From the NCBI RefSeq assembly GCF_046105845.1, contig NZ_CP151004.1: 64,000 bases of DNA, one strand, 5' to 3'. Of the stretch, positions 26,661 to 57,956 are shown one piece after another (position 1 is the stretch's first letter; each line of letters begins with the position of its first letter). The DNA is from Escherichia coli (GTDB lineage: Bacteria; Pseudomonadota; Gammaproteobacteria; Enterobacterales; Enterobacteriaceae). The notes under the pieces are model-generated. The model ran no database searches, was not told where the DNA came from, and was given only the letters and a program-made list of their open reading frames with translations. The position numbers and the translations under genes were made by a program.

Positions 26661-27095
26661 CAGTGTTTCTCCTTTCGCCCGCCAGAGTAAAAAGCAACCG
26701 TTTACGTTAATGAAACTGTCTAAACACATGCTCGTGGAGTGCCAGTTTTTGCGAGGAAGGGGAGTTAGAGACAGGAATTGCGGAGGCAATCACATAATCG
26801 TGGTTAAACCACGAAAATGAGAAGAGAACCTGACAATGGAATTATCTGTAATTTTCTCATATTGATATTTCATTAATCATTCTGGCATGTCGCACTCTCG
26901 CTTTTAATCGTTTTTATCTGGATAGCGCTCTTTTGGTCGGCAATGTTGAAATAATGAAAGCGGCACAGATTGAGGGGCAATAATTTGAACTCAGTCGCAA
27001 AATTATAATTAAAACGGTCATGCTACCTAATATATGCCCGTTTATTGCATCGCGAAATTTGAGAAGACATAACTCATTAAATGAAAGGGATGCAA

Positions 27096-29538: not shown

Positions 29539-30906
29539 TTAGATTGCCCAACCACCCGCGTAAAATGCGACCAGTGCGGCAGTAATGATCACCGTACCAA
29601 TATTCAACTTTTGCCATTCGCGAGCAAAGACACGGCCTACGACCAGTGTCACAAAGCCCAGCATAATACCGGTAACGATATTACAAGTCAGAACGATGAA
29701 CACGGCACACACCAGGCCAGCCATTGCGTCAATAAAATCGTTGAAATCCAGCTTCGAGACGTTACTTAACATCAGCAAACCCACGTACATCAGAGCGGGT
29801 GCAGTGGCGTAACCAGGGATCAAAAATGACAGCGGTGATAAGAACAGAATCAGCAGGAATAACGCCCCCACTACGGTTGCGGTCAACCCTGTTTTACCCC
29901 CGGCGGCGGTTCCTGCCGCTGATTCGATATAAACCGCTGCGGGCGCTGCGCCCACCAGGCCGGAGAATATTGAACTTACTGAGTCACTGGTCAGGGCTTT
30001 GCCGCCGTTGATGATCTGGTTGTCTTTATCCAACAAATTCGCCTGACCGGCGACGGCACGGATGGTGCCAGTGGCGTCGAACACTGCGGTCATCACCAAT
30101 GCCAGTACACTCGGAAGTACAGTTGGCTGGAGTGCGCCCATAATATCGAGGCTGAAAATCAGAGACTTACCATCTTCGCCAGTCAGGCTTGGCATCGCCA
30201 CCAGACCGTGGTACTTCACCGCTGGGTCAAAGATTAAGCCGATGATCGAAATTGCGATAATTACCAACAAGATCCCGCCTGGTACGCGGCACTTTTCCAG
30301 ACCGAAGATGACCGCCAGGCCCAGTAAGCTCATCATCACCGGGAAGGAGGTAAACGCACCGAGCGCCACCGGCAAGCCTTCAATCGGGTTTTTGATAACC
30401 ATTCCCACACCGTTAGCAGCAATCAGCAGCAGAAACAGGCCGATACCGATACCAGTACCGTGAGCGATACCCATCGGCAAATTACGTAAGATCCAGGTAC
30501 GCACACCGGTTACGGAAATGGCGGTGAAGATGACGCCCATCAGAAAGACCGCGCCCAGTGCGACAGGAACGCTAATTTGTTGCCCGAGTACCAGACTGAA
30601 TGCGGTAAACGCCGTCAAGGAAATCGCGCAACCAATCGCCATTGGCAAATTGGCCCACAACCCCATCAGCAACGAGCCGAAGCCCGCGACCAGACAGGTG
30701 GCAACAAACACAGCTGCGGGAGGAAAACCTGCTTTGCCCAGCATTCCCGGAACGACGATAACGGAATAAACCATGGCCAGAAAGGTCGTTAAGCCAGCCA
30801 GTACTTCCTGACGAACGGTACTGCCACGAGCGGTAATTTTAAAATAATTATCCAGCGCGCCCTGTGGCTTTGGTGCGTCCGGTGTTTGTAGGATGTCTCC
30901 AGACAT
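29539..30906 (-). CDS. ghxQ: Guanine/hypoxanthine permease (AzgA-like NCS2 family)
   Basis: 455-aa polytopic membrane [48 protein letters not shown]... Confidence 0.88.
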
Positions 30907-30941
30907 AATGATGTCCTCACGAGGATGTTAAAGTTTTATTA

Positions 30942-32261
30942 TTAGTTGCGTTCGTACACCAGACGACCATCAACGTAGGTGCGGTAGATCGAACGGTCAT
31001 CGCCCAACGTCATCATCACGAACAATTTGTCGACTAAAGAAACAGAGTTGTCATAGCGCAGCTGCTGTAGCGGAGTGGCGGTGGGTTCCATCACCACGAA
31101 ATCAGCCTCTTTGCCAGGTAAAAAGTTGCCAATCAAATCGTCAAGGCCCAGAGATTTCGCTCCGCCGAGCGTGGCCAGGTAAAACGCTTCATATGCCGAG
31201 AGGCGATAGCCTTGTAATTGCAATACTTTGTAGGCTTCGTTCAGCGTTTGCAGCATGTTGAAAGTGGTTCCGGCACCGATATCCGTTCCCATGCCCACTT
31301 TAACTTTCTTCTGCCATGCTTTTTTCAAGTTGAATAAGCCGCTGCCGAGGTAAAGGTTGGAGGTCGGACAGAAAGCAATGCTGGATTTGGTTTCGCTGAG
31401 ACGATCCCACTCTTTTTCTTCGAGATGGACGCAGTGAGCAAAGACACAGTTTTTACCGGTCAGGCCGTACTGATGGTAAACATCCAGATAACCATCATGG
31501 TCAGGATAAAGCGATTTCACCCAGGCAATTTCATCTTTGTTTTCACAGAGATGGGTATGTACCCACGTATCCGGATATTCTTCTTTCAGGCGTTGCGCCA
31601 TCGCCATCTGTTCAGGAGATGAGGTAGGGGCGAAGCGTGGCGTAATCGCATACAACAGACGACCATTTTTGTGCCAGCGTTCGATCAGTTCTTTGCTTTG
31701 GTGATAGCTGCTTTCGGCAGTGTCTAGCAGATAATCCGGTGCGTTGCGGTCCATCATCACCTTACCGGCAATCATACGCATATTGATATGACTGGCGGCT
31801 TCAAACAGCGCATCAACGGATTGCGGATGAACAGTGCCAAACACCAGAGCCGTGGTGGTTCCGTTACGTAAAAGCTGCTTGATGAAGAACGCCGACATTT
31901 CGCGGGCGTACTCTAAATCCTCATAACGACGTTCAGTAGGGAAGGTGTGTTTATTCAACCACTCCAGCAATTGTTCACCATAGGCCCCCACCATTTCACT
32001 TTGCGGATAATGGATATGTGTATCGACAAAGCCCGGTACTATCAGTTTGCCGCGATAGTCGCGCACGCGAATAGTGTCAGGAATTTGATGCTTTCCGTCT
32101 TCCCATTCGCCAAACCATTCCACTTTTCCCTGTTTAATGAGTAATAAACCATCCTCAATAAACCGCAGCGCAGAGGCAATCTCCTCTGGGTTATCGACTG
32201 TACGGGTGACATCAATAAAACTGCCTCGTACCGCTTTTAACGTGTGTTCTCCTGACATCAT
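30942..32261 (-). CDS. guaD: Guanine deaminase
   Basis: Start set at MMSGEHTLKAVRGSFIDVTRTV... to give 439 aa; amidohydrolase metal-binding motifs (DTHIHYPQ, HCVHL). Confidence 0.9.
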   Translation of the reverse strand: MMSGEHTLKAVRGSFIDVTRTVDNPEEIASALRFIEDGLLLIKQGKVEWFGEWEDGKHQIPDTIRVRDYRGKLIVPGFVDTHIHYPQSEMVGAYGEQLLEWLNKHTFPTERRYEDLEYAREMSAFFIKQLLRNGTTTALVFGTVHPQSVDALFEAASHINMRMIAGKVMMDRNAPDYLLDTAESSYHQSKELIERWHKNGRLLYAITPRFAPTSSPEQMAMAQRLKEEYPDTWVHTHLCENKDEIAWVKSLYPDHDGYLDVYHQYGLTGKNCVFAHCVHLEEKEWDRLSETKSSIAFCPTSNLYLGSGLFNLKKAWQKKVKVGMGTDIGAGTTFNMLQTLNEAYKVLQLQGYRLSAYEAFYLATLGGAKSLGLDDLIGNFLPGKEADFVVMEPTATPLQQLRYDNSVSLVDKLFVMMTLGDDRSIYRTYVDGRLVYERN

Positions 32262-32275
32262 TGACTCCTTTACTG

Positions 32276-33676
32276 TTAATCCATCTCTTCCGCTGAGGTA
32301 ATACCAGGCAGAACGTTTTCCTGTCGGTAGCCACCAGGGAGGATAATATTTAATAAAATCGCAGTTAACCCGCCAGCACAAATAGGGTTTTCAACTAGTA
32401 CATATATAGAGGCTGGCAATATTTTAAAAATTTCGGGATCGTAGGAGACGCCAAGTCCTAAACCTAAAGAAGTGGCGACAATAAGTGTTTCTCGGCGCTT
32501 TAAACCGTTGGTGATGATGATGCGAATCCCAGCGATAGCAATCATGGAAAACATCAACGTCATTGCGCCTCCCAGAACTGCAGAGGGTATGGTTGTGAAG
32601 AAGCCGCCAATCATCGGAAACAAGCCGAGGATAACCAGCATTACCGCGATGGTTCGCCCGACATAACGTGAAGCGACGCCAGTCATCTGAATAACCCCAT
32701 TATTTTGCGCAAACGTGGTTAAGGGTAATGAACCGACAGCGGAGGCGATAACAGAAACCAGACCATCTGCCAGCACGCCGCCTTTCAGTCGGGACTGATA
32801 CTCTTCCCCCTGAATAGGGCGGCGAGAAACCATTGCCGTGGCGGTGATATCGCCGACAGCTTCCAGCACGCTAAGCAAATAAATCGTGCCAACCACCAGG
32901 AACTGATGGAAGCTGAAACTAAACCCGTATTTGAACGGATGCGGGATGGTGATTAACGGCAAATTGCGCATACTGCTGAAATCCACCATACCCAGGCATA
33001 ACGACACGATATAACCGACGCAAAGGCCAATGGCGATCCCTCCCATGCGTAGCAACGGACTGCGACAGCAGTTAAAGCCGATCACCACAATCAAAACCAA
33101 TAAACCAACGCCGAGATGTTCGTAATTGCCGAACGTACCGCTGCTTTTGGCTGCAAATCCTCCACCAAAATCGATAATGCCGACTTTAATCAGGCTTAAG
33201 CCGATCATCAGTACCACAATACCGCTGACAGTAGGCGTAATAACCCGACGTAAATAGGGCAGGATAAAAGAAGAGCCGACAACCAGAAATGCGCCAACGA
33301 AGGAGACGCCGAGGAGCGACGACATGATTAACTCTTCGTGAAAACCGTCGCTTTTCATGCTGCTGCCCAGCGCAATCATGACCGTAACAAATGAAAAATT
33401 GACTGACTGAATTGAGAGTAGGCCAGAACCGACGATGCCGTAGCGGTTTACTTGTAACCAGGTACCAATACCAGAGGCGATCATCGCCATAGAAACAAGA
33501 TAGGCGGTTGTTTCAGCGGAAAGCTGTAAGGCCGCACCCACGATTAACGCGGGGGTTACCATCGGAACAAAAATTGCCAACAGATGGGTAATGGCACCAA
33601 CGAGAGCCTGATGAAAGGGAGGGCGATCCTCCAGTTCAAATATAAGGTCAGAACCTGCATGGTTTATATCAGACAT
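32276..33676 (-). CDS. xanQ: Xanthine permease (NAT/NCS2 family)
   Basis: Start set at MSDINHAGSDLIFELEDRPPFHQALVGA... to give 466 aa. Confidence 0.9.
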   Translation of the reverse strand: MSDINHAGSDLIFELEDRPPFHQALVGAITHLLAIFVPMVTPALIVGAALQLSAETTAYLVSMAMIASGIGTWLQVNRYGIVGSGLLSIQSVNFSFVTVMIALGSSMKSDGFHEELIMSSLLGVSFVGAFLVVGSSFILPYLRRVITPTVSGIVVLMIGLSLIKVGIIDFGGGFAAKSSGTFGNYEHLGVGLLVLIVVIGFNCCRSPLLRMGGIAIGLCVGYIVSLCLGMVDFSSMRNLPLITIPHPFKYGFSFSFHQFLVVGTIYLLSVLEAVGDITATAMVSRRPIQGEEYQSRLKGGVLADGLVSVIASAVGSLPLTTFAQNNGVIQMTGVASRYVGRTIAVMLVILGLFPMIGGFFTTIPSAVLGGAMTLMFSMIAIAGIRIIITNGLKRRETLIVATSLGLGLGVSYDPEIFKILPASIYVLVENPICAGGLTAILLNIILPGGYRQENVLPGITSAEEMD

Positions 33677-33840
33677 CCCTTCACTCCTTTTAAAGTAAAT
33701 TTGATCATCTGAATTAGTAAAATAAATTCCCACGAATTTGGGGCGCAGGACGCCTTGAGAACGGCTTATCTCATTTTCGCAGTCACTATTTAGTCATCGT
33801 TCAAACAGAGAAACAGGCCGCCGAAGCGGCCATTTATTAT

Positions 33841-36711
33841 TTATATTTTTTCCAGCGCAGTGAGTATTTTCTCCGGTGTGAAATGCCATTCGCGTAACCA
33901 GATGCCGCAGGCATCGTGAATTGCGGTAGCAATCGCCGGAGCTGCGCCATTTACACCGATTTCCGAGATCGATTTCGCCCCGAACGGGCCGACTTTATCG
34001 TCGCTCGGCACCAGCACAGCGCGGAAATCACGCGGAATATCGCCTATTTTCGGTGCGCCGTAACTGCGTAAATCACGCGTTAACGGGTGACCTTCGGCGT
34101 CATAAATGATTTCTTCGCTCATACTGTGGCCGATTGCACGAAGGGTGGCACCGTAGATTTGTCCCAACGCTAACTCTGGATTGACCGGTGTACCGCAATC
34201 CAGCAAGGCGTAGAATTTATCCAGGCGGATTTCACCCGTACGCGTGTTGACGGCAACTTCAGCAAAGTTTGCGCCATACGGGAAGGCGAAATCAGGCGTG
34301 ATATAACTGCCAGTTCCCACCAGTGAACCAAAGCCTGTGCCGGTTTCGCCTTTATGGGCAATATCCCCGAAACTAACTTCGCCTTTCTTGCCGCGTACGA
34401 CGCCCGGCGTTGCTAGTTGGACATCTGCCACTGGCTCACCCAACATTTGCGCACCGTGGAACAGAATTTTCTCCCGCAGATTTTCTGCTGCCAAACGCGC
34501 CGCGTTACCCGAGAAGCAAGTACCGGACGAGGCATATGCGCCTTTATCAAACAACGCATGATCGGTATCACCGGAGATAACATGCACGTCCTGCGGTGGG
34601 CAGTGCAGCACTTCTGCTGCCAGTTTCGTCACCACGGTATCCAGACCAGTACCAATATCCGCACCGCCAGAATGAACGATAAAGGTACCGTCTGATTCCA
34701 GTTTGATCATGCAGTTAGCCTGATCGATATCCGGGATCCCTGATTTCTGCATGATAATGGCGACGCCACGACCGATGTGCCAGTCACCGTTTTGTGGTTT
34801 TGGTGAAGACCATTGGATCATCTCGCGACCCTGACGCAGGATCTCTTCCAGTGCGCAGCTGGCGGCGGAAGGAACGGAGGTCGGCGCTTTACCTTCACCG
34901 ATTGCACCGAGAATTTTCAGCTCTTGCCCTTCGTGTACCCGGTTACGTTCGATAATTTCCAGTTGGTCGATCTGTAACTGTTCAGCCAGTTCCGCTAATG
35001 CCATGGTGATAGCGAAGTTACCTTTCGGTGCGCCATAACCCTGATAAGCACCATTTGGGCAAATGTTGCTGTAGTAGGTGGTGACCTGGAAATCGACGTT
35101 ATCGCACGGATATAACGGCAGCGACAGCGCCGGTCCGTTACACGGTACGGTGAGTGAGTGGTTGCCGTAAGGGCCAGTGTTGGCGCGGAAATCCATCTTC
35201 ACTGCCGTCAGGCGACCATCTTTTTTCGCTCCCAGTTTGACGGTGACTTTCGCGACGTGACGAGAGGTGTTAGCAATAAACTCTTCTTCACGGGTGTAGC
35301 GGAACAGTACCGGACGCCCGGTCACGCAGGTTGCCCAGGCGCACACTTCTTCCAGCAGGATGTCCTGTTTGGAACCAAAACCGCCGCCAACTCGCTCTTT
35401 AATGACATGAACTTTATGCTGTTTCATGCCCACGAGGCGCGCGACCTGGCGGCGTAAGTGCCATGGTACCTGGGTGGAGGCGTGGATAACCAGACGATCG
35501 CCGTCCATACGGGTAAAGCAGATATGAGTTTCAGTCGGGCACTGCTGCGCCTGCGTTGAGTTATAGGTTCGCTCAATGATCACATCGGCATCGGCAAAGC
35601 CTTTGTCCATATCGCCGATATGACCATGAATACTGGCGGCGATATTTTTACGGGGGCGAGAACCGATCGGGAAGTTGATGATCATATGCTCGCCGCGCTG
35701 GGCTGCATGGCTGTTATCGTCTTCCAGAGTATCTGGCGCACCAGCAACATACACCACCGGTTCATCGTGCACGACAGGCGCATCTTCCGCCATTGCTTCG
35801 TCGATCGACATTACAGGTTTAAGCACTTCATATTCAACGTCGATGAGCTTCAGTGCTTCGAGCGCAATTTCTTCACTTTCTGCGACGACCGCAGCAACAC
35901 GATCGCCGACGTGACGCATTTTCTTGCCGAACATACGGCGGTCAAGCGGTGACGGTTCCGGTGCGCTCTGACCGCCCGGGGTATAGTAGATATCCGGGCA
36001 ATTCAGGTGAGTAATAACGTGAACAACGCCCGGTAAGGCTTCAGCTTTGCTGACATCCAGATGAGTAATCAGTGCGTGAGCGTGTGGGCTACGTAACATT
36101 TTAATGACGCAGGCGTCAGCCGTTACGCGGTCTTCAACATAGCAGGGTTTCGCCTGCACCATTTTCGCGGCATCAGTTTTAGGATAATGCTTACCAATGA
36201 CTTCAAGGTCATCGCGGAAAGTCGGAGCGATATCAATGGTGGCCTGCGGATTATTTTTACGTGCAACCGCCAGTTCAATGACCTGATAGTATTGTTGCCA
36301 GCCTGCATCGCGGCTGAACAAACCAGAAAGCGCGTCGTCGATCTCTTCGCGGGTCGGTGCGGCAATGCGATCGAGAAGATCGGTGATAATCAGAGCCGCA
36401 GCTGGATCGTTATAACCAGACTGCACCACGCCAACATCAACCATTGCCTGTTGAACCAGACTTAACTCGTTCCATTTGCCCAGAGACTCTGCGGTACGAA
36501 TATCTGCCTTCTCTAACTGTGCGGCGATAAGCAAGGACGCGTTAACGATATTACCGTTACAGATAATTGCGTCAGAACCGGCAAACCCGAATCCATCATC
36601 GCTGTTGCGTACAGAGTGCATTCCCATGTTAAACAACAGCTTTTGCACGTTTTCGCCTGGATTAACGGTTAGCTCCTGAGGCGCGCCATTTAAAGTAAAG
36701 TGGATGATCAT
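33841..36711 (-). CDS. xdhD: Molybdopterin-dependent hydroxylase, fused 2Fe-2S and Mo-binding domains (xanthine dehydrogenase family)
   Basis: 956-aa ORF MIIHFTLNGAPQELTVNPGENVQKLLFNMG...; N-terminal 2Fe-2S ferredoxin-like domain then aldehyde-oxidase/xanthine-dehydrogenase Mo domain. Confidence 0.9.
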   Translation of the reverse strand: MIIHFTLNGAPQELTVNPGENVQKLLFNMGMHSVRNSDDGFGFAGSDAIICNGNIVNASLLIAAQLEKADIRTAESLGKWNELSLVQQAMVDVGVVQSGYNDPAAALIITDLLDRIAAPTREEIDDALSGLFSRDAGWQQYYQVIELAVARKNNPQATIDIAPTFRDDLEVIGKHYPKTDAAKMVQAKPCYVEDRVTADACVIKMLRSPHAHALITHLDVSKAEALPGVVHVITHLNCPDIYYTPGGQSAPEPSPLDRRMFGKKMRHVGDRVAAVVAESEEIALEALKLIDVEYEVLKPVMSIDEAMAEDAPVVHDEPVVYVAGAPDTLEDDNSHAAQRGEHMIINFPIGSRPRKNIAASIHGHIGDMDKGFADADVIIERTYNSTQAQQCPTETHICFTRMDGDRLVIHASTQVPWHLRRQVARLVGMKQHKVHVIKERVGGGFGSKQDILLEEVCAWATCVTGRPVLFRYTREEEFIANTSRHVAKVTVKLGAKKDGRLTAVKMDFRANTGPYGNHSLTVPCNGPALSLPLYPCDNVDFQVTTYYSNICPNGAYQGYGAPKGNFAITMALAELAEQLQIDQLEIIERNRVHEGQELKILGAIGEGKAPTSVPSAASCALEEILRQGREMIQWSSPKPQNGDWHIGRGVAIIMQKSGIPDIDQANCMIKLESDGTFIVHSGGADIGTGLDTVVTKLAAEVLHCPPQDVHVISGDTDHALFDKGAYASSGTCFSGNAARLAAENLREKILFHGAQMLGEPVADVQLATPGVVRGKKGEVSFGDIAHKGETGTGFGSLVGTGSYITPDFAFPYGANFAEVAVNTRTGEIRLDKFYALLDCGTPVNPELALGQIYGATLRAIGHSMSEEIIYDAEGHPLTRDLRSYGAPKIGDIPRDFRAVLVPSDDKVGPFGAKSISEIGVNGAAPAIATAIHDACGIWLREWHFTPEKILTALEKI

Positions 36712-41967: not shown

Positions 41968-42288
41968 AACCCTCTCCTTAGCTTATACAGATATCATTGA
42001 GTGACCGGTGTTGAGAAATCCGGTGGTTTAGGGGGATAGAGCAACAATCGCACCACTCTTGCCAGGTTTGGCGGGAAATATAAAAAAATGTGAGGCGGCT
42101 CGAAACTTAAGGGCTTTTTGTGAATGAACTCACAGGTGCCAAATGAGAATTAAAATCACTCCTGAAAATTATTATTGCCAGCCCATTTATCACTTTTTCT
42201 CTTTTCTCAAAATCAGTGATTCCTTATCATTATGATAAAGAGTGCCGGAAGGATTAAATATTTGAACGCAATCGTTTAACTACGTTTT

Positions 42289-42969: not shown

Positions 42970-43740
42970 GTGAAAAGTATAGTTGACCCATCGGCATTAT
43001 TCATTGATTTAGGTGCGCAGAAACGTCCCACTGTGATTTCTGTTGTTGGTGCTGGGGGGAAAACCAGCTTGCTTTTTTGGCTGGCAGAACTGCTCCAGGC
43101 TAGCGGCAGGCGTGTGTTAATCACGACGACGACACATATGTTTATGCCAACGTCTCACTGGCCCGTGGTTTTCTGTCGTGATCCCGCCATGCTTCCTCAT
43201 GCGTCTTTTATATCCCCCATTTCATTTTGTTTTCACAGTTGGAAAGCGAACCAGGGAAAAGTGCAGGGATTTACGCCAGAAGCGATTGATGCACTGGTAC
43301 AACGATCAGAGTGTGACGTAATTCTCATTGAGGCAGATGGCTCGCGTGGAATGCCGTTAAAAGCGCCTGATGAGCACGAACCTTGCATACCTAAAAGCAG
43401 TTGCTGCGTGATTGCTGTGATGGGAGGACATATTTTGGGTGCAAAAGTGAGCACAGAAAATGTCCATCGCTGGTCGCAGTTTGCTGATATTACTGGGTTA
43501 ACACCTGATGCACCCTTGCAACTGAGCGATCTCGTTGCGCTGGTTCGCCACCCTCAGGGCGCATTTAAAAACGTACCGCAAGGTTGTCGGCGAGTCTGGT
43601 TCATTAACCGTTTTTCTCAATGTGAGAATGCGATTGCGCAAAGCGAGCTCCTTCAACCGCTGCAACAACACGACGTAGAGGCAATCTGGCTGGGCGATAT
43701 ACAAGAACATCCTGCAATCGCGCGCAGATTTGTGAATTAG
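42970..43740 (+). CDS. yqeC: Selenium-dependent molybdenum hydroxylase system protein, YqeC family (P-loop)
   Basis: GTG start; 256 aa; Walker A-like VVGAGGKTSL. Confidence 0.85.
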   Translation: MKSIVDPSALFIDLGAQKRPTVISVVGAGGKTSLLFWLAELLQASGRRVLITTTTHMFMPTSHWPVVFCRDPAMLPHASFISPISFCFHSWKANQGKVQGFTPEAIDALVQRSECDVILIEADGSRGMPLKAPDEHEPCIPKSSCCVIAVMGGHILGAKVSTENVHRWSQFADITGLTPDAPLQLSDLVALVRHPQGAFKNVPQGCRRVWFINRFSQCENAIAQSELLQPLQQHDVEAIWLGDIQEHPAIARRFVN

Positions 43741-45453: not shown

Positions 45454-46386
45454 TTACTGACAAATCACCGTTCCGGTTTTGCCTTCAATCCCTTCTTTCG
45501 CTTTGCTCAATACGGTAATCAGTGCTTCACGACCTGCGCGAGAGCGAGCAAACGAGGCGGCAGCTTCCACTTTAGGCAGCATAGAACCTTTCGCAAAATG
45601 ACCTTCTTCGATAAAGCGTTCAGCATCACTTAATGACAGGCGATCGAGCCACTGTTCATTCTCTTTACCGAAGTTAATGGCCACTTTTTCTACCGCAGTC
45701 AGAATGATCAGCATATCGGCATCAATCATTTCTGCTAAACGGGCGCTGGCCCAGTCTTTATCGATAACCGCACTGGCACCACGCAGGTGGTTACCTTCAC
45801 GAATAACAGGGATACCACCTCCGCCAACGGTGATCACCACCTGGCCTGCATCTACCAACGCTTTAACCGTTTCTTTTTCAATGATATCAACCGGTTTTGG
45901 CGAGGCAACAACACGGCGATAGCCGCGACCAGCATCTTCTTTCAGAGTGTAACCCTGTTTTGTCAGTTGCTCTGCTTCTTGTTCGGTAAAGAACGAACCG
46001 ATCGGCTTGGTCGGGTTGAGGAATGCCGGGTCGTTAGCATCGACTTCGACCTGGGTAACCAGCGTTGCTACAGGTTTATTAATGCCACGAGAAAGCAGTT
46101 CTTCTCTTAATGCGTTTTGTAGATCGTAACCAATATAACCCTGGCTTAAGGCAACACAGACAGACATCGGCAGCATTGGCGAGTGCGCTTCAGTTTTTGC
46201 GGCAGCTTCAAAGGCCTGGTTAATCATGCCCACCTGTGGCCCGTTACCGTGAGTGACGATGACCTCATGTCCCTGGGCAATTAAATCAACAATTGCCTGA
46301 GACGTAATTTTTACCGCTTTCATTTGTCCGGCCAGGTCATCGCCCAGCGCATTCCCGCCCAGGGCGAGAACAATTTTCTTACTCAT
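45454..46386 (-). CDS. yqeA: Carbamate kinase-like protein
   Basis: 310-aa ORF MSKKIVLALGGNALGDDLAGQ...; amino-acid-kinase family N-terminal motif. Confidence 0.9.
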   Translation of the reverse strand: MSKKIVLALGGNALGDDLAGQMKAVKITSQAIVDLIAQGHEVIVTHGNGPQVGMINQAFEAAAKTEAHSPMLPMSVCVALSQGYIGYDLQNALREELLSRGINKPVATLVTQVEVDANDPAFLNPTKPIGSFFTEQEAEQLTKQGYTLKEDAGRGYRRVVASPKPVDIIEKETVKALVDAGQVVITVGGGGIPVIREGNHLRGASAVIDKDWASARLAEMIDADMLIILTAVEKVAINFGKENEQWLDRLSLSDAERFIEEGHFAKGSMLPKVEAAASFARSRAGREALITVLSKAKEGIEGKTGTVICQ

Positions 46387-46433
46387 TTTTCCTCACTCAT
46401 CATTCTTGATTGTGTATAGATCCCTGGCAGTGG

Positions 46434-47819
46434 TTAGAGCACGGGAGGGACAAACGGTTTGCGTCGCAGGAAACGACCTCGCCCGGCTTTGCCTGTAAAG
46501 GTGCCGTCACAGAAAATCGTTTCACCACGGGATAAGGTTCTGACAATCGCGCCCTGACAGGTAAAACCCTCCCATGGCGAGTAGTCGGCGTTGTCGTGGA
46601 GATGGCGATGCTGAATTTGTTGGCTCTGACGTGGGTCGATAATCACCACGTCGCCATCGGAACCGGGCGCTAATAATCCTTTTTGCGGCCACAGGCCAAA
46701 CAGCCTGGCGGGCATTGCGCTGGTTAATTCAACAAAACGTTCCGGTGTTATACGTCCCGTCATAACGCCACTGGAAAACAGTAACTGCATGCGGTTTTCC
46801 ACACCGGGTAAGCCATTTGGGCAGCGACTGAAATCGCCTTTAGAAATTTGCAGGCGTTGAGCCATCGAGAACGTGCAGTGATCGGTCGCTACCACGTCAA
46901 TCGCACCATCGCTGATGCCACACCACAGTTTGTCCTGCTCGCGTACGTTACGCAGCGGTGGGCTAAGAATGAACTTCATGCCATCTTCTGTATCGTAACT
47001 GCGTTCGTCCAACAGGAGATATTGTGGGCAGGTTTCAACCCAGACTGGCTGGTGATTCGCACGGGCAAGACGCAGATAATCCAGACCTAAGCCGTTAGAC
47101 AGGTGCACGATATAGAGCGGGGCGTTACCGGCAATTTGTGCCAGGTTAATCATGCGGGCGATGGCTTCCGCTTCGCATTCCAGAGGGCGACTCAAGGCGT
47201 GATAGCGCGGCGCGGTTAACCCTGCGGCAATAAACTCCGCCCGCTTGCTGGCGATAGCTGCATCATTTTCCGGGTGCACGGTGGTCAGCGCGCCGGACTC
47301 ATGCAAGCGGCGTAACGCCTGCAAAACTTCGTCATCGTTGAGTTTGTATTGATAGGTTAAATAGAGTTTAAAACTGCTCAGCCCTTCCTCGACCATCATC
47401 GGGATTTCGTCGAGGATGGCGTGATTAATGTGCTGGATCACACCGTGAAAGCTGTAGTCGATGACCGCCTTATGGGCGGCATAACCACGATAAACCTCCA
47501 GTTGATGGCGTAACCGGCAGCCATTCGGGCCAAATCCCATATGGTCAATAATGGTTGTTGTACCGCCACACGCAGCTGCGCGGGTACCGGTAAAAAAATC
47601 ATCACAACTGCGCGCGATGCCGACATCAATATTGAAATGCGTATGGACATCCACGCCGCCAGGGAAAACGTAACAGCCAGTGGCATCAATTTCTTCATAC
47701 GGGAGCTGTGGCGAAATATTGTTGCCCAACTGGCGAACAATCCCGCTTTCAATCAGCAAATCCTGTTTGGCTTGTCCATCTGCGTTAACGACAGTGCCGT
47801 TTTTGATCAATACGCGCAT
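46434..47819 (-). CDS. hyuA: D-phenylhydantoinase / dihydropyrimidinase-like cyclic amidohydrolase
   Basis: Start set at MRVLIKNGTVVNADGQAKQDLLIESGIV... to give 461 aa; DxHxH metal motif (GGVDVHTHF). Confidence 0.9.
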   Translation of the reverse strand: MRVLIKNGTVVNADGQAKQDLLIESGIVRQLGNNISPQLPYEEIDATGCYVFPGGVDVHTHFNIDVGIARSCDDFFTGTRAAACGGTTTIIDHMGFGPNGCRLRHQLEVYRGYAAHKAVIDYSFHGVIQHINHAILDEIPMMVEEGLSSFKLYLTYQYKLNDDEVLQALRRLHESGALTTVHPENDAAIASKRAEFIAAGLTAPRYHALSRPLECEAEAIARMINLAQIAGNAPLYIVHLSNGLGLDYLRLARANHQPVWVETCPQYLLLDERSYDTEDGMKFILSPPLRNVREQDKLWCGISDGAIDVVATDHCTFSMAQRLQISKGDFSRCPNGLPGVENRMQLLFSSGVMTGRITPERFVELTSAMPARLFGLWPQKGLLAPGSDGDVVIIDPRQSQQIQHRHLHDNADYSPWEGFTCQGAIVRTLSRGETIFCDGTFTGKAGRGRFLRRKPFVPPVL

Positions 47820-47871
47820 AGCAAACTCCAAAAACCCTCCGGCGAACCGGAGGGGAATAAGTGAAGAGTAA

Positions 47872-49083
47872 TTATTCGGTTGCCAGCCAGCTTAACGGGA
47901 TTGCAGCGTACATCGCGGCACAGGTCACCAGGTGAGATTTCCAGGTTTTTTCGTTAGGTGCATGTGCTTCAGGTTCTTTACCCGGGCCAAAGCCGATCAC
48001 CGGAATGCCGTGACGGCCCATGATAGATACGCCGTTAGTTGAGAAGGTCCACTTATCAACAACCGGCGCTTTGCCAAACAGCCCTTCGTAGGCATTCACC
48101 AGTGCTTTAACGGTGAAGTGATCTTCTTCCACTTTCCAGGTCGGGAAGTAGCATTCGGTTGGGTATACCAGGCCAGTCCAGGACGGACGGTCGTAGTTGT
48201 ACATAGAAACAACCGCGTTAGCTTTCTGTACCGCAGGCAGGGCGCGGATTTCATCCAGCGCGCCTTCCCAGGTTTCGCCCCAGGTCAGACGGCGGTCAAT
48301 AGAGACGGCGCAGCTATCTGCTACTGCGCAACGGCTTGGGGATGTGAAGAAGATTTCAGAAACGGTGAGGGTGCCTTTGCCGAGGAATTCGTCATAACCC
48401 AGACGTTGGGAGAGTTCTTGTAATTCGCCAAGAATCGGACCCATTTTGAAAATGGCGTTGTCACCGCGTTCTGGTGCAGAACCGTGGCAGCTAACACCCT
48501 GAACATCAATACGAATTTCCATACGACCGCGCTGACCACGGTATACCTGGCAGTCGGTTGGTTCGGTACTGACCACAAATTCCGGGCGAATGCCGGATTG
48601 TTCAATAATGTACTGCCAGCACAGGCCGTCGCAGTCTTCTTCCTGCACAGTACCGGTAACCAGCAGGGTATATTCATCTTCCAGACCGAGGTCTTTAATG
48701 ATTTTACCGGCATAAACCATAGATGCCATGCCGCCTTCCTGGTCGGAAGTACCGCGACCACCGATCAGCTCATCAGTTTCCATGCCTTCGTACGGATCGA
48801 AGTCCCAGTTTTTGATGTTGCCAATGCCGACGGTATCGATATGAGCGTCCATTGCCACCAGACGCGGGCCGTGGCCGATATAACCGAGAACGTTGCCCAT
48901 CGGGTCGATTTCAACTTTATCGAAGCCTACTTTTTCCATCTCTTCTTTAATACGATGTACTACGCGTTTTTCGTCGCAGCTTTCACTGGGAATAGCAACC
49001 ATGTCGCGCAGGAAGCGAGTCATGTCCGCCTGGTAATCTTTTGCTTTTTCAAGAATCAGTTTGAATGGAATATTCTTAGCCAT
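47872..49083 (-). CDS. ygeY: M20-family peptidase / amidohydrolase
   Basis: 403-aa [38 protein letters not shown]... Confidence 0.9.
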
Positions 49084-49140
49084 TATTTTTCTCCAGATTT
49101 TTTACTCCCCGTTTTGCAGGGAGCAGTTCCAATAGGGTGA

Positions 49141-50337
49141 TTAAGGTGCTACAGCGTGTTTGCCTTCCCAGACAACTTCGCGGTAGTGCTTCACGTCTGT
49201 GTCGCCTTCAGTGCTGATAACCAGCACTACGGCATCTTTGTTCAGCGCCAGTTTTTCCATCAGGCTTTGACGTTGCGGGTGATAATGAACCGCTGCGAGA
49301 ACGCCCAAACCGACAGCGCCGGATTCACCGGAGATGATGCGCGGGTCATTGCCGTACGGATTACCCAGCACACGCATACCTAATGCGGCAACGCTGTCCT
49401 GGCAGGAGATGAATTGGGTGGCGCAGTTACGTAGGATTTCCCAGCCCAGCGGGTTAGGTTCGCCGCAGGCCAGGCCCGCCATGATGGTGGCCATATCACC
49501 GCCAACGTTGACGATGTCGCCTTTGACGCCGGAGCGATAAATACAGTCAGCTTTGTCAGGTTCAACAATAATGCTGTGCAGATTTTGCGGGCTGTAGACG
49601 TCGACCAGATAACCCAGCACACCACCGGCCATTGCACCGACACCGGCTTGCAGCAGAACGTGTGTCGGGGTTACGCCCATTTCACGCATTTGCTCGACGG
49701 CTTCATCTGCCAGTGTTGCGTAGCCTTGCATGATCCAGGTTGGGATTTTGGTGTAACCTTTCCATGCTGTGTCCTGTACCACTTCCCAACCGTGCTGCTG
49801 CGCATGTTGCATGGTCAGGCGAACGGTATCGTCATAGTTCATATCCGTGACGATGCACTCGGCACCGAGGTTCAGAATGGCGTCAACGCGTTCCTGAGCA
49901 GAACCTTTCGGCATGTAAATCACCGCATTCTGTCCGAGTTGCTGCGCTGCCCACGCCACACCGCGCCCGTGGTTGCCGTCGGTGGTGGTCGCGAAAGTCA
50001 TTTTTTCGCCGATGGCATTTTTCAGGTGCTCAAATGACAGCGTTTCGATATCAAGATGATATTTTTCACACAATAATTGAGCGATGGCGTATGCACCGCC
50101 GAGCATTTTGAAGGCGTTCAGACCGAATCGTTTTGATTCGTCTTTGACGAGAATTTTCTTCACACCAAAAAGGTTTGCGAGATCGTCCAGCGCACAAAGC
50201 GGTGTTGGGCGATAACCAGCAATTTTCTGGTGGAACTGGCGCGCCAGTTTGGCCTGGCTTTGCGAAAAGAGCGGTGATGTTTCGCCGTTGAAAAATTTGT
50301 TATCGGCGATATCAATCTTCAATGAGAAAACGGACAT
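49141..50337 (-). CDS. ygeX: Diaminopropionate ammonia-lyase (PLP-dependent)
   Basis: 398-aa ORF MSVFSLKIDIADNKFFNGETSPLF...; PLP-lysine region DESKRFGLNAFKMLGG. Confidence 0.9.
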   Translation of the reverse strand: MSVFSLKIDIADNKFFNGETSPLFSQSQAKLARQFHQKIAGYRPTPLCALDDLANLFGVKKILVKDESKRFGLNAFKMLGGAYAIAQLLCEKYHLDIETLSFEHLKNAIGEKMTFATTTDGNHGRGVAWAAQQLGQNAVIYMPKGSAQERVDAILNLGAECIVTDMNYDDTVRLTMQHAQQHGWEVVQDTAWKGYTKIPTWIMQGYATLADEAVEQMREMGVTPTHVLLQAGVGAMAGGVLGYLVDVYSPQNLHSIIVEPDKADCIYRSGVKGDIVNVGGDMATIMAGLACGEPNPLGWEILRNCATQFISCQDSVAALGMRVLGNPYGNDPRIISGESGAVGLGVLAAVHYHPQRQSLMEKLALNKDAVVLVISTEGDTDVKHYREVVWEGKHAVAP

Positions 50338-50394
50338 ATCCTATCCTTTTGGCCTCTGGAAATAGAGGGCCGACCAGCTGATCGGCCCGAGGGG

Positions 50395-51585
50395 TTATTT
50401 CACGCGTTCTTGCGCTTCTTTCAGCAGTTGCTCGAGCAGTGCACCTGGTTTGGCGTATTTACGGGACAGGATCATCGCGGCGATGATATAAGGCTTCCAG
50501 CTGGCTTCTTTGTAGGTCGCGATACGGTATTTTTCGAATACGCCTTCAGTCACTTCACCTTCTTTGCAGGATACGCCGCTGATATCAGCTGGCAGGCAGT
50601 GCATGTACAGGGCTTCGCCATCACGGGTCAGTTCCATCATCTCTTCAGTACAATGCCAGTCTTTGTGTTGCGCGTTCTGTGCCAGACACTGTTTTTCCAG
50701 TGCTTTTAAGCCTTCGTGGTCGTTCGCACGCAGCAATTCAGTACGCTCTTCCATCACTTTGTAAGGTGCCCATGACTTCGGATAAACGATGTCTGCGTCT
50801 TTGAAGGCTTCTTCCATGCTGGTGACCTGACGGAAACTACCGCCAGAGGCTTTAGCATTGTTTTTCGCCACTTCAACCACATCCGGGATCAGGTCGTAGC
50901 CTTCCGGATGGGCCAGGGTGACATCCATACCGAAGCGAGTCATCAGACCGATGATGCCTTGTGGTACAGAGAGCGGTTTGCCATAGCTTGGGGAGTAGGC
51001 CCAGGTCATGGCGATTTTTTTACCTTTCAGGTTTTCCAGTGAACCAAAGTGTTCACGTAACCATGCCAGGTCAGCCATTGACTGAGTCGGGTGGTCAATA
51101 TCGCATTGCAGGTTCACTAAAGCCGGACGTTGCGGCAGCACACCCTGCTTGTAACCGTCATCAAGTGCAGCGCCAACTTCACGCATATAGGCGTTGCCTG
51201 CGCCCAGATACATATCGTCGCGAATACCAATAGCGTCGGCGCAGAAGGAGATCATATTGGCGGTTTCACGCACGGTTTCGCCGTGAGCGATTTGTGATTT
51301 GCCTTCGTCGAGATCTTGCTGTGCAAGGCCGAGCAGGTTAAGCGCGGAAGCATAAGAGAAGCGGGTTCGGGTGGAGTTGTCGCGGAATACGGAAATACCT
51401 AATCCACTATTAAAGACTTTGGTTGAGATGTTTTCAGCACGCAGTGCTTTTAATGCTGCGGCAACGTCCAGTACTTGTTTCAGTTCATCTGGCGTCTGTT
51501 CCCACGTTAACAAAAAATCTTTTTCGTGAAGGTGAGAGGTCAGCGAATTGATATCCTTAATCAGCTCATTAACAGTTTTCATCAT
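50395..51585 (-). CDS. ygeW: Carbamoyltransferase-like protein (ATCase/OTCase fold)
   Basis: 396-aa ORF MMKTVNELIKDINSLTSHLHEKDFLLTWEQ...; STRTR carbamoyl-phosphate-binding motif. Confidence 0.9.
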   Translation of the reverse strand: MMKTVNELIKDINSLTSHLHEKDFLLTWEQTPDELKQVLDVAAALKALRAENISTKVFNSGLGISVFRDNSTRTRFSYASALNLLGLAQQDLDEGKSQIAHGETVRETANMISFCADAIGIRDDMYLGAGNAYMREVGAALDDGYKQGVLPQRPALVNLQCDIDHPTQSMADLAWLREHFGSLENLKGKKIAMTWAYSPSYGKPLSVPQGIIGLMTRFGMDVTLAHPEGYDLIPDVVEVAKNNAKASGGSFRQVTSMEEAFKDADIVYPKSWAPYKVMEERTELLRANDHEGLKALEKQCLAQNAQHKDWHCTEEMMELTRDGEALYMHCLPADISGVSCKEGEVTEGVFEKYRIATYKEASWKPYIIAAMILSRKYAKPGALLEQLLKEAQERVK

Positions 51586-52060
51586 AAAGTCCCGGTAGTG
51601 GAATGACAGGCAAAGAGGTTTATTTCACTGTGACTTGCCAAAGTGATTGGTGTTTTCACAGCTATACCTGGGACTAACAATAAGTGTGCCAGAATTATCC
51701 GCGCGGCTGGAAAAGACTAATTTGACGGATAATGTGTGGGGTTGATCACAAATTGATGCCAGCTTCCGGTTGTTTGTAAAATACGAAAACGTTTGGCTTT
51801 TTTTATCGCGTTATTTATTTGCTGCTAAGTATCAGAAATAAGATAAAGGGACAGGCGATCTCTCTTCAGTTTGATAAACTCACCGCCGTAATTCTCATAT
51901 TGATATAGAAATGTGATATCTCTTCCATAATTTCATTAGAAAGTGATAAAAATCTTATGTTTTTATCAAAGCCAATTTCGCCTGAGTTAATATCATCATG
52001 ATCTATGAACCATCAACGTCTTCAATGATCGACTTTTAAGTAAGTCTGGAAGGTAAAGCT

Positions 52061-53839
52061 ATGGAGCTTGCTACTACGCAGTCAGTATTGATGCAAATTC
52101 AACCGACAATTCAGCGTTTTGCCAGAATGCTTGCCAGCGTTTTGCAGCTTGAGGTTGAGATCGTTGATGAAAACTTGTGTCGCGTCGCCGGAACGGGCGC
52201 GTATGGGAAGTTTCTTGGTCGCCAGTTGAGCGGCAACTCACGCCTGCTCCGCCACGTCCTGGAAACGAAAACTGAAAAAGTTGTGACACAGTCTCGCTTC
52301 GATCCCCTTTGTGAAGGTTGCGATAGTAAAGAAAATTGCCGCGAAAAAGCATTTCTGGGTACGCCTGTCATTTTACAGGATCGTTGTGTTGGGGTGATAA
52401 GTTTGATTGCCGTTACCCACGAGCAACAAGAGCATATTAGTGATAATTTACGCGAATTTTCTGATTACGTTCGCCATATATCCACCATTTTTGTTTCGAA
52501 ACTTCTGGAGGATCAGGGACCAGGAGATAACATCAGTAAAATATTCGCGACCATGATCGATAATATGGATCAGGGTGTATTAGTTGTTGATGACGATAAT
52601 CGGGTTCAGTTTGTTAATCAGACAGCCTTAAAAACACTCGGTGTTGTGCAAAATAATATTATTGGGAAACCTATCCGTTTCAGACCATTAACATTTGAGA
52701 GTAATTTTACCCATGGACATATGCAGCATATTGTTTCGTGGGACGATAAAAGTGAGTTAATCATTGGTCAATTGCATAACATTCAGGGCCGACAATTATT
52801 TTTAATGGCGTTTCACCAATCGCATACCAGTTTTTCTGTAGCAAATGCACCTGATGAACCGCATATTGAACAATTGGTTGGCGAGTGCCGTGTTATGCGG
52901 CAATTAAAACGACTCATTAGCCGTATTGCACCCAGCCCATCCAGCGTTATGGTGGTTGGTGAAAGCGGCACAGGTAAAGAAGTCGTCGCCCGTGCAATCC
53001 ATAAGTTGAGCGGAAGACGGAATAAACCCTTTATTGCTATCAACTGTGCCGCGATTCCGGAGCAGCTTCTGGAGAGCGAACTGTTCGGTTATGTTAAAGG
53101 CGCATTTACTGGCGCTTCTGCCAACGGTAAAACAGGGTTGATTCAGGCGGCGAATACGGGCACGCTGTTTCTCGATGAAATAGGTGATATGCCATTAATG
53201 TTGCAGGCTAAATTACTGCGCGCTATTGAGGCGCGTGAAATTCTGCCGATTGGTGCCAGTAGCCCAATACAAGTCGACATTCGCATCATTTCTGCAACTA
53301 ACCAGAATTTGGCCCAGTTCATTGCCGAAGGTAAATTCCGCGAAGATCTCTTCTACCGACTTAATGTTATCCCGATAACTCTGCCACCGCTGCGTGAACG
53401 TCAGGAAGATATTGAACTACTGGTGCATTACTTTTTACATCTGCATACCCGTCGTCTGGGATCGGTTTATCCGGGCATTGCTCCCGATGTCGTCGAAATA
53501 TTGCGTAAGCATCGTTGGCCCGGAAACCTGCGCGAGTTAAGCAATTTGATGGAATATCTGGTTAACGTGGTTCCTTCAGGTGAAGTTATCGACAGCACGC
53601 TATTGCCGCCAAATCTGCTGAATAATGGCACAACGGAGCAAAGTGGTGTAACAGAGGTCAACGAGGCGCACCTGGCACTCGATGATGCGGGCGGCACGGC
53701 GCTGGAGGAGATGGAAAAGCAAATGATCCGCGAGGCGCTTTCACGTCATAACAGCAAGAAGCAAGTTGCTGATGAACTGGGCATCGGCATTGCTACGCTC
53801 TATCGCAAGATTAAGAAATATGAGTTGTTAAACACATAA
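52061..53839 (+). CDS. ygeV: Sigma-54-dependent transcriptional activator (bacterial enhancer-binding protein)
   Basis: 592 aa; AAA+ sigma-54 interaction domain (GESGTGKE Walker A, GAFTGA motif, C-terminal HTH). Confidence 0.92.
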   Translation: MELATTQSVLMQIQPTIQRFARMLASVLQLEVEIVDENLCRVAGTGAYGKFLGRQLSGNSRLLRHVLETKTEKVVTQSRFDPLCEGCDSKENCREKAFLGTPVILQDRCVGVISLIAVTHEQQEHISDNLREFSDYVRHISTIFVSKLLEDQGPGDNISKIFATMIDNMDQGVLVVDDDNRVQFVNQTALKTLGVVQNNIIGKPIRFRPLTFESNFTHGHMQHIVSWDDKSELIIGQLHNIQGRQLFLMAFHQSHTSFSVANAPDEPHIEQLVGECRVMRQLKRLISRIAPSPSSVMVVGESGTGKEVVARAIHKLSGRRNKPFIAINCAAIPEQLLESELFGYVKGAFTGASANGKTGLIQAANTGTLFLDEIGDMPLMLQAKLLRAIEAREILPIGASSPIQVDIRIISATNQNLAQFIAEGKFREDLFYRLNVIPITLPPLRERQEDIELLVHYFLHLHTRRLGSVYPGIAPDVVEILRKHRWPGNLRELSNLMEYLVNVVPSGEVIDSTLLPPNLLNNGTTEQSGVTEVNEAHLALDDAGGTALEEMEKQMIREALSRHNSKKQVADELGIGIATLYRKIKKYELLNT

Positions 53840-57502: not shown

Positions 57503-57649
57503 GCAAGATTCACCCGTAGCGGTTGCTTCCCGCGCTTCCATAGAAATCCCCTCGATTTGAACATTTGGTTCTTATGGCAAAGATTTAGTCTAAGCAGGCA
57601 AGATTTACGCCAGAAACGACGATAAGCGTTAAGGGAGGAAGGAAGTGTG

Positions 57650-57697: not shown

Positions 57698-57956
57698 GGG
57701 CAGTGATACGTATCAATATGAGTGGCGATAAAATCAATGTGATAAATTGGGATTATTACGCATCAGGATGGGAAATAGGGTAAATGAGTCAGGAAATTCG
57801 ATACATCTATAGTGAATATTTTGCTGATGATACTTCCCTTTGCCAAATGAAATTAACCTCTTTCTCTATTACCGCGTTTTTCCAGAAGCAAGAGATTGGG
57901 TATCCAGAGGCTGGCTGCTATGATATGGCGTCTTGTTTTTTAAGCGAGGAAAGATT

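Follow-up and report, generated by a model that had tools for sequence, protein, structure and literature searches.

The probable sigma-54 promoter of ygeW in Escherichia coli: a known binding site, and a candidate upstream operator for the divergently encoded activator YgeV

Background

Amongst the sigma-54 promoters described in E. coli, those of pspA and pspG, which depend on the activator PspF, are functional with the same TTGT at the -12 position (TTGGCACGCAAATTGTA and TTGGCATGATTCTTGTA) as is found upstream of ygeW, although they respond to a different activator and carry another upstream element. IHF assists looping at pspA. The ygeV-ygeW spacer, however, contains no IHF consensus (allowing up to one mismatch), and a CRP-type site is found between the upstream elements and the core promoter. 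The NtrC-activated promoter glnAp2 also resembles ygeW in having a -24/-12 core, tandem upstream sites, an AAA+ protein with a GAFTGA motif and looping, which at ygeW is a proposal. CRP reportedly influences glnAp2 through DNA bending. NtrC is, however, a phosphorylated response regulator, whereas YgeV lacks a receiver domain and possesses an N-terminal region and a PAS domain instead. The palindrome at ygeW (TATCA-N3-TGATA) also differs from the NtrC box (TGCACCA-N3-TGGTGCA), and the upstream sites are located farther away (about 185-215 bp) than at glnAp2.

In terms of gene content, a comparable system is that of DioR, a sigma-54 activator of Clostridiales, whose regulon comprises dpaL, ygeW-ygfK-ssnA-ygeY, yqeB, yqeC and xdhC (Nie et al. 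2019, PMC6615313). As in the YgeV cluster, a sigma-54 activator is set over the same gene set, although the lineage is distant; a YgeV relative with 36 % identity adjoins ygeW in Desulfosporosinus.

The ygeW operon serves the anaerobic (reductive) degradation of uric acid in gut bacteria and is of interest for gout and hyperuricaemia. A 2025 review describes ygeWXY-hyuA-yqeA as needed for this degradation and as a 'UacR-regulated operon', uacR being ygeV, and cites Iwadate and Kato 2019. YgeV, which was renamed UacR and is also called IsrR, has been reported to be necessary for uric acid degradation, a process that requires this operon. A 2025 study elucidated the enzymology of the pathway, YgeW included, and the pathway was re-engineered by replacing the ygeV-ygeW spacer; the same work mentions that glucose represses the pathway and that the spacer contains a 'native Crp-binding site' (PMC12507026).

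A sigma-54 promoter was predicted for b2870 (= ygeW) by Francke et al. 2011, and a later citation credits an earlier prediction to Reitzer and Schneider 2001. Binding was subsequently mapped by ChIP-seq in E. coli K-12 as site OS30, with the peak at 3004190, a fold-above-threshold occupancy score (FAT) of 3 and 80 nt from the predicted start to ygeW (Bonocora et al. 2015, PLoS Genet, PMC4591121). The site was not yet in EcoCyc when published, and table S5 of that study reports its conservation in Citrobacter, Yokenella and Raoultella. The same authors caution that binding alone is no proof of a productive promoter and that many sites may never fire. Genomic SELEX with the RpoN holoenzyme gave, in vitro, a peak in the ygeV/ygeW spacer at 53-55 % (Shimada et al. 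2021). Lamoureux et al. define a YgeV iModulon in which ygeWXY co-varies with the cluster's other sigma-54 operons; the member list of a later study includes xdhABC, ygeWXY, hyuA, ygfK, ssnA, ygfM, xdhD, ygfT and uacT. The promoter was thus predicted in 2011, its binding by sigma-54 was shown in 2015 and 2021, and its assignment to the YgeV/UacR regulon dates from 2019-2023.

Methods

The window analysed here is a stretch of 64,000 nucleotides (64 kb) from an E. coli chromosome, in which a reading of the sequence alone (the sequence-only reading) had pointed to a sigma-54 promoter upstream of ygeW. For scoring sigma-54 sites, a weight matrix was derived from the 135 ChIP-seq motifs of Bonocora et al. 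2015 minus the five that belong to the window itself, leaving 130. The predicted transcription start was placed following the convention of these authors. A second matrix, for the upstream palindrome, was trained on twelve non-E. coli copies and applied to the window.

Orthologous loci were collected by a scan with the YgeW protein, using one genome per species, which returned at least 80 loci. Amongst the matches listed, 20 are proteobacterial, belonging to Edwardsiella, Pluralibacter, Serratia, Enterobacter, Hafnia, Kosakonia, Cedecea, Erwinia, Aeromonas, Photobacterium, Endozoicomonas and a Rhodocyclaceae MAG. Neither Escherichia nor Citrobacter is represented in the matches listed, and conservation within the species was checked separately. 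Thirteen ygeV-ygeW spacers, from 13 species, were aligned.

Results and discussion

The -24/-12 element and its genes

The motif flagged upstream of ygeW is confirmed, and its reading as a sigma-54 promoter of the ygeWXY-hyuA-yqeA operon is supported and already known: since sigma-54 binding at exactly this 17-mer has been published, the finding is correct and not new. The 17-mer is identical to that of OS30 in K-12, with the same orientation and the same 80-nt distance, so that there is no difference at the site itself; the window comes from another E. coli strain and shows 7 substitutions elsewhere in the 475-bp spacer. Overall, the spacer is 98.5 % identical to that of K-12 MG1655 and all elements discussed below are identical. 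Coordinates of the features are provided in the table.

Table. Features of the ygeV-ygeW spacer, its flanking genes and the related sites of the cluster in the window
Feature	Sequence	Position	Strand	Basis or remark
sigma-54 core promoter of ygeW	CTGGCACACTTATTGTT	51676..51692	-	17-mer; letters, weight matrix, ChIP-seq identity, orthologs
predicted transcription start of ygeW		51665	-	12 nt past the -12 position, equal to 19 nt past the motif centre (51684); K-12 U00096.3 about 3006182
ygeW leader (5' UTR), about 80 nt		51586..51664	-	from motif and predicted start coordinates
CRP-type site	TGTGATCAACCCCACA (minus-strand reading)	51735..51750	.	one mismatch to TGTGA-N6-TCACA
UAS2	TTATCAAACTGAAGA (minus-strand reading)	51863..51877	.	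centre 186 bp upstream of sigma-54 motif centre, 29 bp from UAS1
UAS1	TATCAATATGAGA (minus-strand reading)	51893..51905	.	candidate YgeV/UacR operator; centre 215 bp upstream of sigma-54 motif centre
ygeW, knotted carbamoyltransferase		50395..51585	-	ORF; Pfam OTCace_N + OTCace; RefSeq annotation of 99.3%-identical strain
ygeW-ygeX-ygeY-hyuA-yqeA, ygeW first		45454-51585	-	ORFs
ygeV (uacR, isrR), sigma-54 enhancer-binding protein		52061..53839	+	ORF, RefSeq annotation, Pfam domains
ygfK sigma-54 promoter	GTGGTGCGATTGTTGCT	42040..42056	-	site OS31; weight matrix
ygfK perfect palindrome	TTATCATAATGATAA (minus-strand reading)	42224-42238		183 bp upstream of ygfK sigma-54 site
ygfK perfect CRP-type core		42119-42134		between palindrome and promoter
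xdhA sigma-54 promoter	CTGGCGTAAATCTTGCC	57597..57613	-	site OS29; weight matrix
xdhA palindrome-like sites		57711-57723, 57732-57744		112 and 133 bp upstream of xdhA sigma-54 site
ygfT weak sigma-54 site	TATGCCCGTTTATTGCA	27033..27049	+	site OS32
ygfT palindrome	TTCTCATATTGATAT	26854-26868		180 bp upstream of ygfT sigma-54 site

The sequence-only reading had described a -24/-12 element with one mismatch, in the GC at -12, and the letters bear this out. On the minus strand (context ggataattCTGGCACACTTATTGTTagtccc), the element is made up of TGGCAC (51691-51686), the N5 spacer (51685-81) and TTGT (51680-77). The GG at -24 (51690-51689) is an exact match, the spacing is exact, and the dinucleotide GT instead of GC at 51678-51677 is the sole departure from TGGCAC-N5-TTGC. 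The element had been located correctly, whereas its extent, given as 51677-51692, was one base short. A distance of about 90 nt to the start of ygeW had been claimed, and 91 nt were measured from the 3' end of the motif to the first ATG (51585). A second ATG follows directly (51582; 94 nt); the K-12 record takes the first and PGAP (RefSeq) the second. The motif is intergenic and lies on the ygeW strand, and the predicted start is 80 nt from the ATG, which equals the value in Table 1 of Bonocora et al. The leader that would result has an ordinary fold (z = -1.0), and a search of the spacer and leader against Rfam gave no match beyond a chance score of 14.8 bits.

Downstream, a strong terminator-like hairpin is present 3' of yqeA (45447-45422). 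GC-rich hairpins are also seen in the ygeW-ygeX gap (50367-50388, minus strand) and in the ygeY-hyuA gap (47835-47854, minus strand), the latter being followed by TTTTT. These may be internal attenuators or RNA-stabilising elements, and the operon may therefore give rise to several transcript lengths.

On the other side of the spacer, ygeV had been taken for a divergent gene of a sigma-54 activator, and its domains agree with this. Encoded on the plus strand, opposite to ygeW, YgeV comprises a Sigma54_activat domain (E = 8e-71) with the GAFTGA loop at residues 347-352, a HTH_8 domain at 548-587 and a PAS domain. It contains no receiver domain, which makes the label 'orphan response regulator' of the IsrR paper a loose one, and its N-terminal 160 residues (52061-52540) match no Pfam family. 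A cluster of cysteines (CEGCDSKENC) is seen in this N-terminal region.

Scores of the element against chance

Using the bare consensus TGGCAC-N5-TTGC with at most one mismatch, 8 matches are found in the window as against 6.8 +/- 2.8 expected from shuffles. Such a count is at chance level and would be in keeping with a functionless chance resemblance; the consensus was therefore replaced by the weight matrix built from published sites. With this matrix the ygeW motif scores 13.75 bits, which ranks 4 amongst 127,968 positions in the window and exceeds the score of 37 % of the published ChIP-seq sites. The probability of such a score is ~1e-5 per position, corresponding to between 1.3 (independent bases) and 2.9 (first-order Markov) expected matches per window; for the 475-bp spacer and the ygeW strand alone, the expectation is about 0.005. 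Three matches in the window score higher, two being the published sites of xdhA and ygfK and the third a motif within xdhD; three of the four best matches thus precede operons of the cluster, in the correct orientation. Along with the rank of the motif, its binding in ChIP-seq and genomic SELEX, its presence in all 20 orthologous loci and the lack of any substitution amongst E. coli strains that differ by 4 % (see below) speak against mere resemblance, which we regard as excluded. A weight-matrix scan for RpoN sites and RpoN ChIP data had been named as checks in the sequence-only reading; the former gave the score and rank above and the latter a published peak, OS30, on the same 17-mer.

The second-best score in the ygeV-ygeW spacer is only 0.7 bits, and ygeV itself thus has no sigma-54 promoter. 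With regard to the mismatch at -12, C is present in 125 of the 135 published sites and absent in 10.

The motif inside xdhD (ATGGCGCAAACTTTGCT, 34261-34277, minus strand) scores 15.5 bits and ties for the best match in the window. The motif is in sense orientation, about 580 nt before xanQ, and is absent from the high-stringency tables of Bonocora et al.; a text search of their supplements for it was negative.

Conservation across strains and species

Of 5,426 complete E. coli genomes, 5,282 contain a match to the ygeW-ygeV region, with identities of 95-99.3 %. Even in strains with 19-20 differences over the 475 positions of the spacer (4 %), the 17-mer carries no substitution. Amongst the proteobacterial loci listed, a sigma-54-type site is found upstream of ygeW in 20 out of 20, with scores of 12-15.4 bits in 19 of them and a weak 6.6 bits in Endozoicomonas. 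In most of these listed loci the site reads TTGGCAC-N5-TTG(T/A)T and precedes ygeW by 70-110 nt, correctly oriented, the exceptions in distance being Photobacterium pectinilyticum (232 nt) and Endozoicomonas (141 nt); nothing comparable was found on the opposite strand of the 20 loci. As in the window, ygeV is divergent from ygeW in 14 of the 20. Alignment of the 13 spacers revealed four conserved islands, namely the -24/-12 element, the palindrome, a CRP-type block and leader blocks.

The base at -12 is never the consensus C in the 20 listed proteobacterial orthologs, being T in 11, A in 7 and G in 2 (T at 51677 in the window), while the TTG before it and the T after it stay fixed. The departure from C may represent a sub-optimal element that is kept by selection, as at pspA and pspG. 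Phylogenetic relatedness of the loci makes the statistics on this base weak.

In most of the non-proteobacterial loci listed, ygeW is an internal operon gene that follows a ygeY-like one and has no promoter immediately in front of it. A sequence that recurs upstream of ygeW in these loci, TTGGnCCnGGnAAnGAA, was considered as a riboswitch or promoter and rejected, as it is coding sequence (GFGPGNE) of the ygeY-like gene; Rfam gave no match for the non-proteobacterial upstream regions that contain it.

A palindrome as candidate YgeV/UacR operator

Upstream of the element, the palindrome UAS1 keeps the form T[A/C]TCA-N3-TGA[T/G]A in every one of the 13 aligned spacers; it scores 20.1 bits with the matrix trained on other species only and shows no substitution in divergent E. 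coli strains. The neighbouring UAS2 has a conserved left half-site, TTATCA, and a weak right half that varies among E. coli strains. On applying the palindrome matrix to the window, 7 matches of at least 10 bits were obtained as against 1.3 expected, and all 7 lie inside the purine/urate cluster. Five of these seven are located upstream of the four intergenic sigma-54 sites, i.e. those of ygfK, ygeW, ygfT and xdhA. In loci of Aeromonas, Photobacterium, Rhodocyclaceae and Endozoicomonas, which were outside the training set, the palindrome is again found 156-236 bp upstream of the sigma-54 site, usually as the sole strong match in 9 kb. Based on its position, conservation and co-occurrence, including that in the held-out loci, the palindrome TATCA-N3-TGATA is likely to be the YgeV/UacR operator. 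The sequence-only reading had considered ygeW a plausible direct target of the divergent activator; the shared upstream palindrome, the divergence in 14 loci and the published membership of ygeW in the YgeV/UacR regulon all lend weight to this.

Two further strong matches to the palindrome (15.6-15.8 bits) are situated in coding regions, at 50049-50061 in ygeX and at 43615-43627 in yqeC. The one in ygeX recurs at the equivalent position in Kosakonia (about 5529 of locus L012), and it could be a functional intragenic site or merely reflect conserved codons.

The CRP-type site and transcription by sigma-70

Between the palindromes and the core promoter lies the CRP-type site, centred at about -77.5 from the predicted start, in the block that is conserved in the 13-species alignment. 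This distance is not a canonical activating position of CRP (-41.5, -61.5, -71.5 ... relative to a sigma-70 start). The site could serve as a DNA bender, in activation of a sigma-70 promoter, or for the divergent ygeV promoter. In a reasonable model, the bend needed for enhancer looping at ygeW would come from CRP-cAMP; this would account for the reported glucose repression.

The main alternative to a productive sigma-54 promoter arises here, namely that sigma-54 binds without effect, or acts as a roadblock or repressor, while ygeW is transcribed from a CRP-activated sigma-70 promoter. Both the low ChIP-seq occupancy (FAT 3) and the GT at -12 count against productive use of the site, the caveat of Bonocora et al. 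on sites that do not fire applies to it, and the alternative is favoured by the conserved CRP-type site, by the native Crp site and glucose repression mentioned in the re-engineering work (PMC12507026) and by a GATAAT hexamer (51699-51694) directly upstream of the -24 element. However, a sigma-70 scan toward ygeW yielded no convincing pair of -35 and -10 elements, the only candidate being a 9-of-12 match that lies over the start codon, and CRP at -77.5 from the sigma-54 start, or at about -55 from a start set by GATAAT, would occupy neither a canonical class I nor a canonical class II position. Moreover, the sigma-54 element and the palindrome are conserved jointly from Enterobacterales to Aeromonas, Photobacterium and a Rhodocyclaceae genome, which an inert site does not explain, and within the YgeV iModulon ygeWXY varies together with the cluster's remaining sigma-54 operons. 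On balance, we consider transcription by sigma-70 past an idle sigma-54 site unlikely.

Related sites in the cluster and the identity of the activator

The arrangement seen at ygeW recurs at ygfK, ygfT and xdhA (table), so that the whole purine/urate cluster would form one YgeV/sigma-54 regulon. The 15-mer TTCTCATATTGATAT is identical in the uacT-ygfT spacer (26854-26868) and in the ygeV-ygeW spacer, where it spans 51892-51906 and contains UAS1.

Upstream of xdhA, TTGATACGTATCAC (57703-57716, minus strand) agrees at 9 of 10 positions with the FNR consensus TTGAT-N4-ATCAA and overlaps a palindrome-like site. It is possibly an anaerobic input to xdhABC.

If the promoter depends on sigma-54, its activator could still be another enhancer-binding protein, of which E. 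coli has about a dozen according to the cited literature, or the palindrome could be the operator of a different regulator such as Fur or FNR. The ygfK palindrome does match the Fur box at 13 of 19 positions and the FNR-like sequence overlaps the element at xdhA. Matches to the Fur box of 11-13 out of 19 are, however, no better than those in random 70-bp windows (95th percentile 12), and the conserved form T.TCA-N3-TGA.A with its variable centre fits neither protein; Fur and FNR were accordingly rejected as owners of the palindrome, their matches being at background level except for the FNR-like site at xdhA. As to other activators, ygeV is divergent from ygeW in 14 loci, the top matches to the palindrome are confined to the cluster that contains ygeV, and ygeV is the gene reported as necessary for the degradation of uric acid, which requires the operon. 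Regulation of ygeW by some other enhancer-binding protein, or another owner for the palindrome, therefore seems very improbable.

Proposed activation of the operon

Considering these lines of evidence together, it is very probable that the motif is the -24/-12 core of the sigma-54 promoter for the uric-acid-degradation operon ygeW-ygeX-ygeY-hyuA-yqeA, and that it is activated by YgeV from the upstream palindromes. The sigma-54 holoenzyme would form a closed complex that it is unable to open alone. An oligomer of YgeV (UacR) would bind the palindromes at 51893-51905 and 51863-51877, about 185-215 bp upstream, and the intervening DNA would loop, probably aided by the CRP-type site at -77.5, which would add catabolite (glucose) control. 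Through ATP hydrolysis and its GAFTGA loop, YgeV would then open the promoter, with initiation near 51665, the predicted position. The literature searched, which did not extend to Iwadate and Kato 2019 or Reitzer and Schneider 2001, contains no primary report of rpoN- or ygeV-dependent initiation at this predicted start.

More tentatively, and with somewhat less than even confidence, a common architecture may be proposed for the YgeV/UacR regulon, in which the sigma-54 sites of ygeW, ygfK, ygfT and xdhA are preceded, at a distance of about 110-235 bp, by a 13-bp operator T[A/C]TCA-N3-TGA[T/G]A, a CRP site in the place usual for IHF couples looping to catabolite control, and a -12 base that is never C is under selection. 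This architecture was described in no paper found, the search having extended to sources other than EcoCyc, RegulonDB and Iwadate and Kato 2019.

The sigma-54 site itself is not new, since its binding has been on record since 2015 and its regulon has been assigned in the meantime. The additions made here are modest and consist of a candidate sequence for the YgeV/UacR operator, the model of CRP-assisted looping and the -12 base that never follows the consensus. The operator and the looping model could guide the design of reporters or the de-repression of the pathway in probiotic strains.

Minor observations

Within yqeC, a CRP-type site with one mismatch (43312-43327) precedes the published intragenic sigma-54 site IS34 (TGAGCACGAACCTTGCA, 43371-43387, plus strand) at a spacing of 59.5 bp, as compared with 58.5 bp at ygeW. 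This layout hints at an internal promoter for yqeB that is arranged as at ygeW.

In E. coli MEW, the closest complete genome, remnants of a type III secretion system are found beyond xdhA (30901-34209 of locus L001). They consist of eivF and a truncated secretin, split by an IS1 element.
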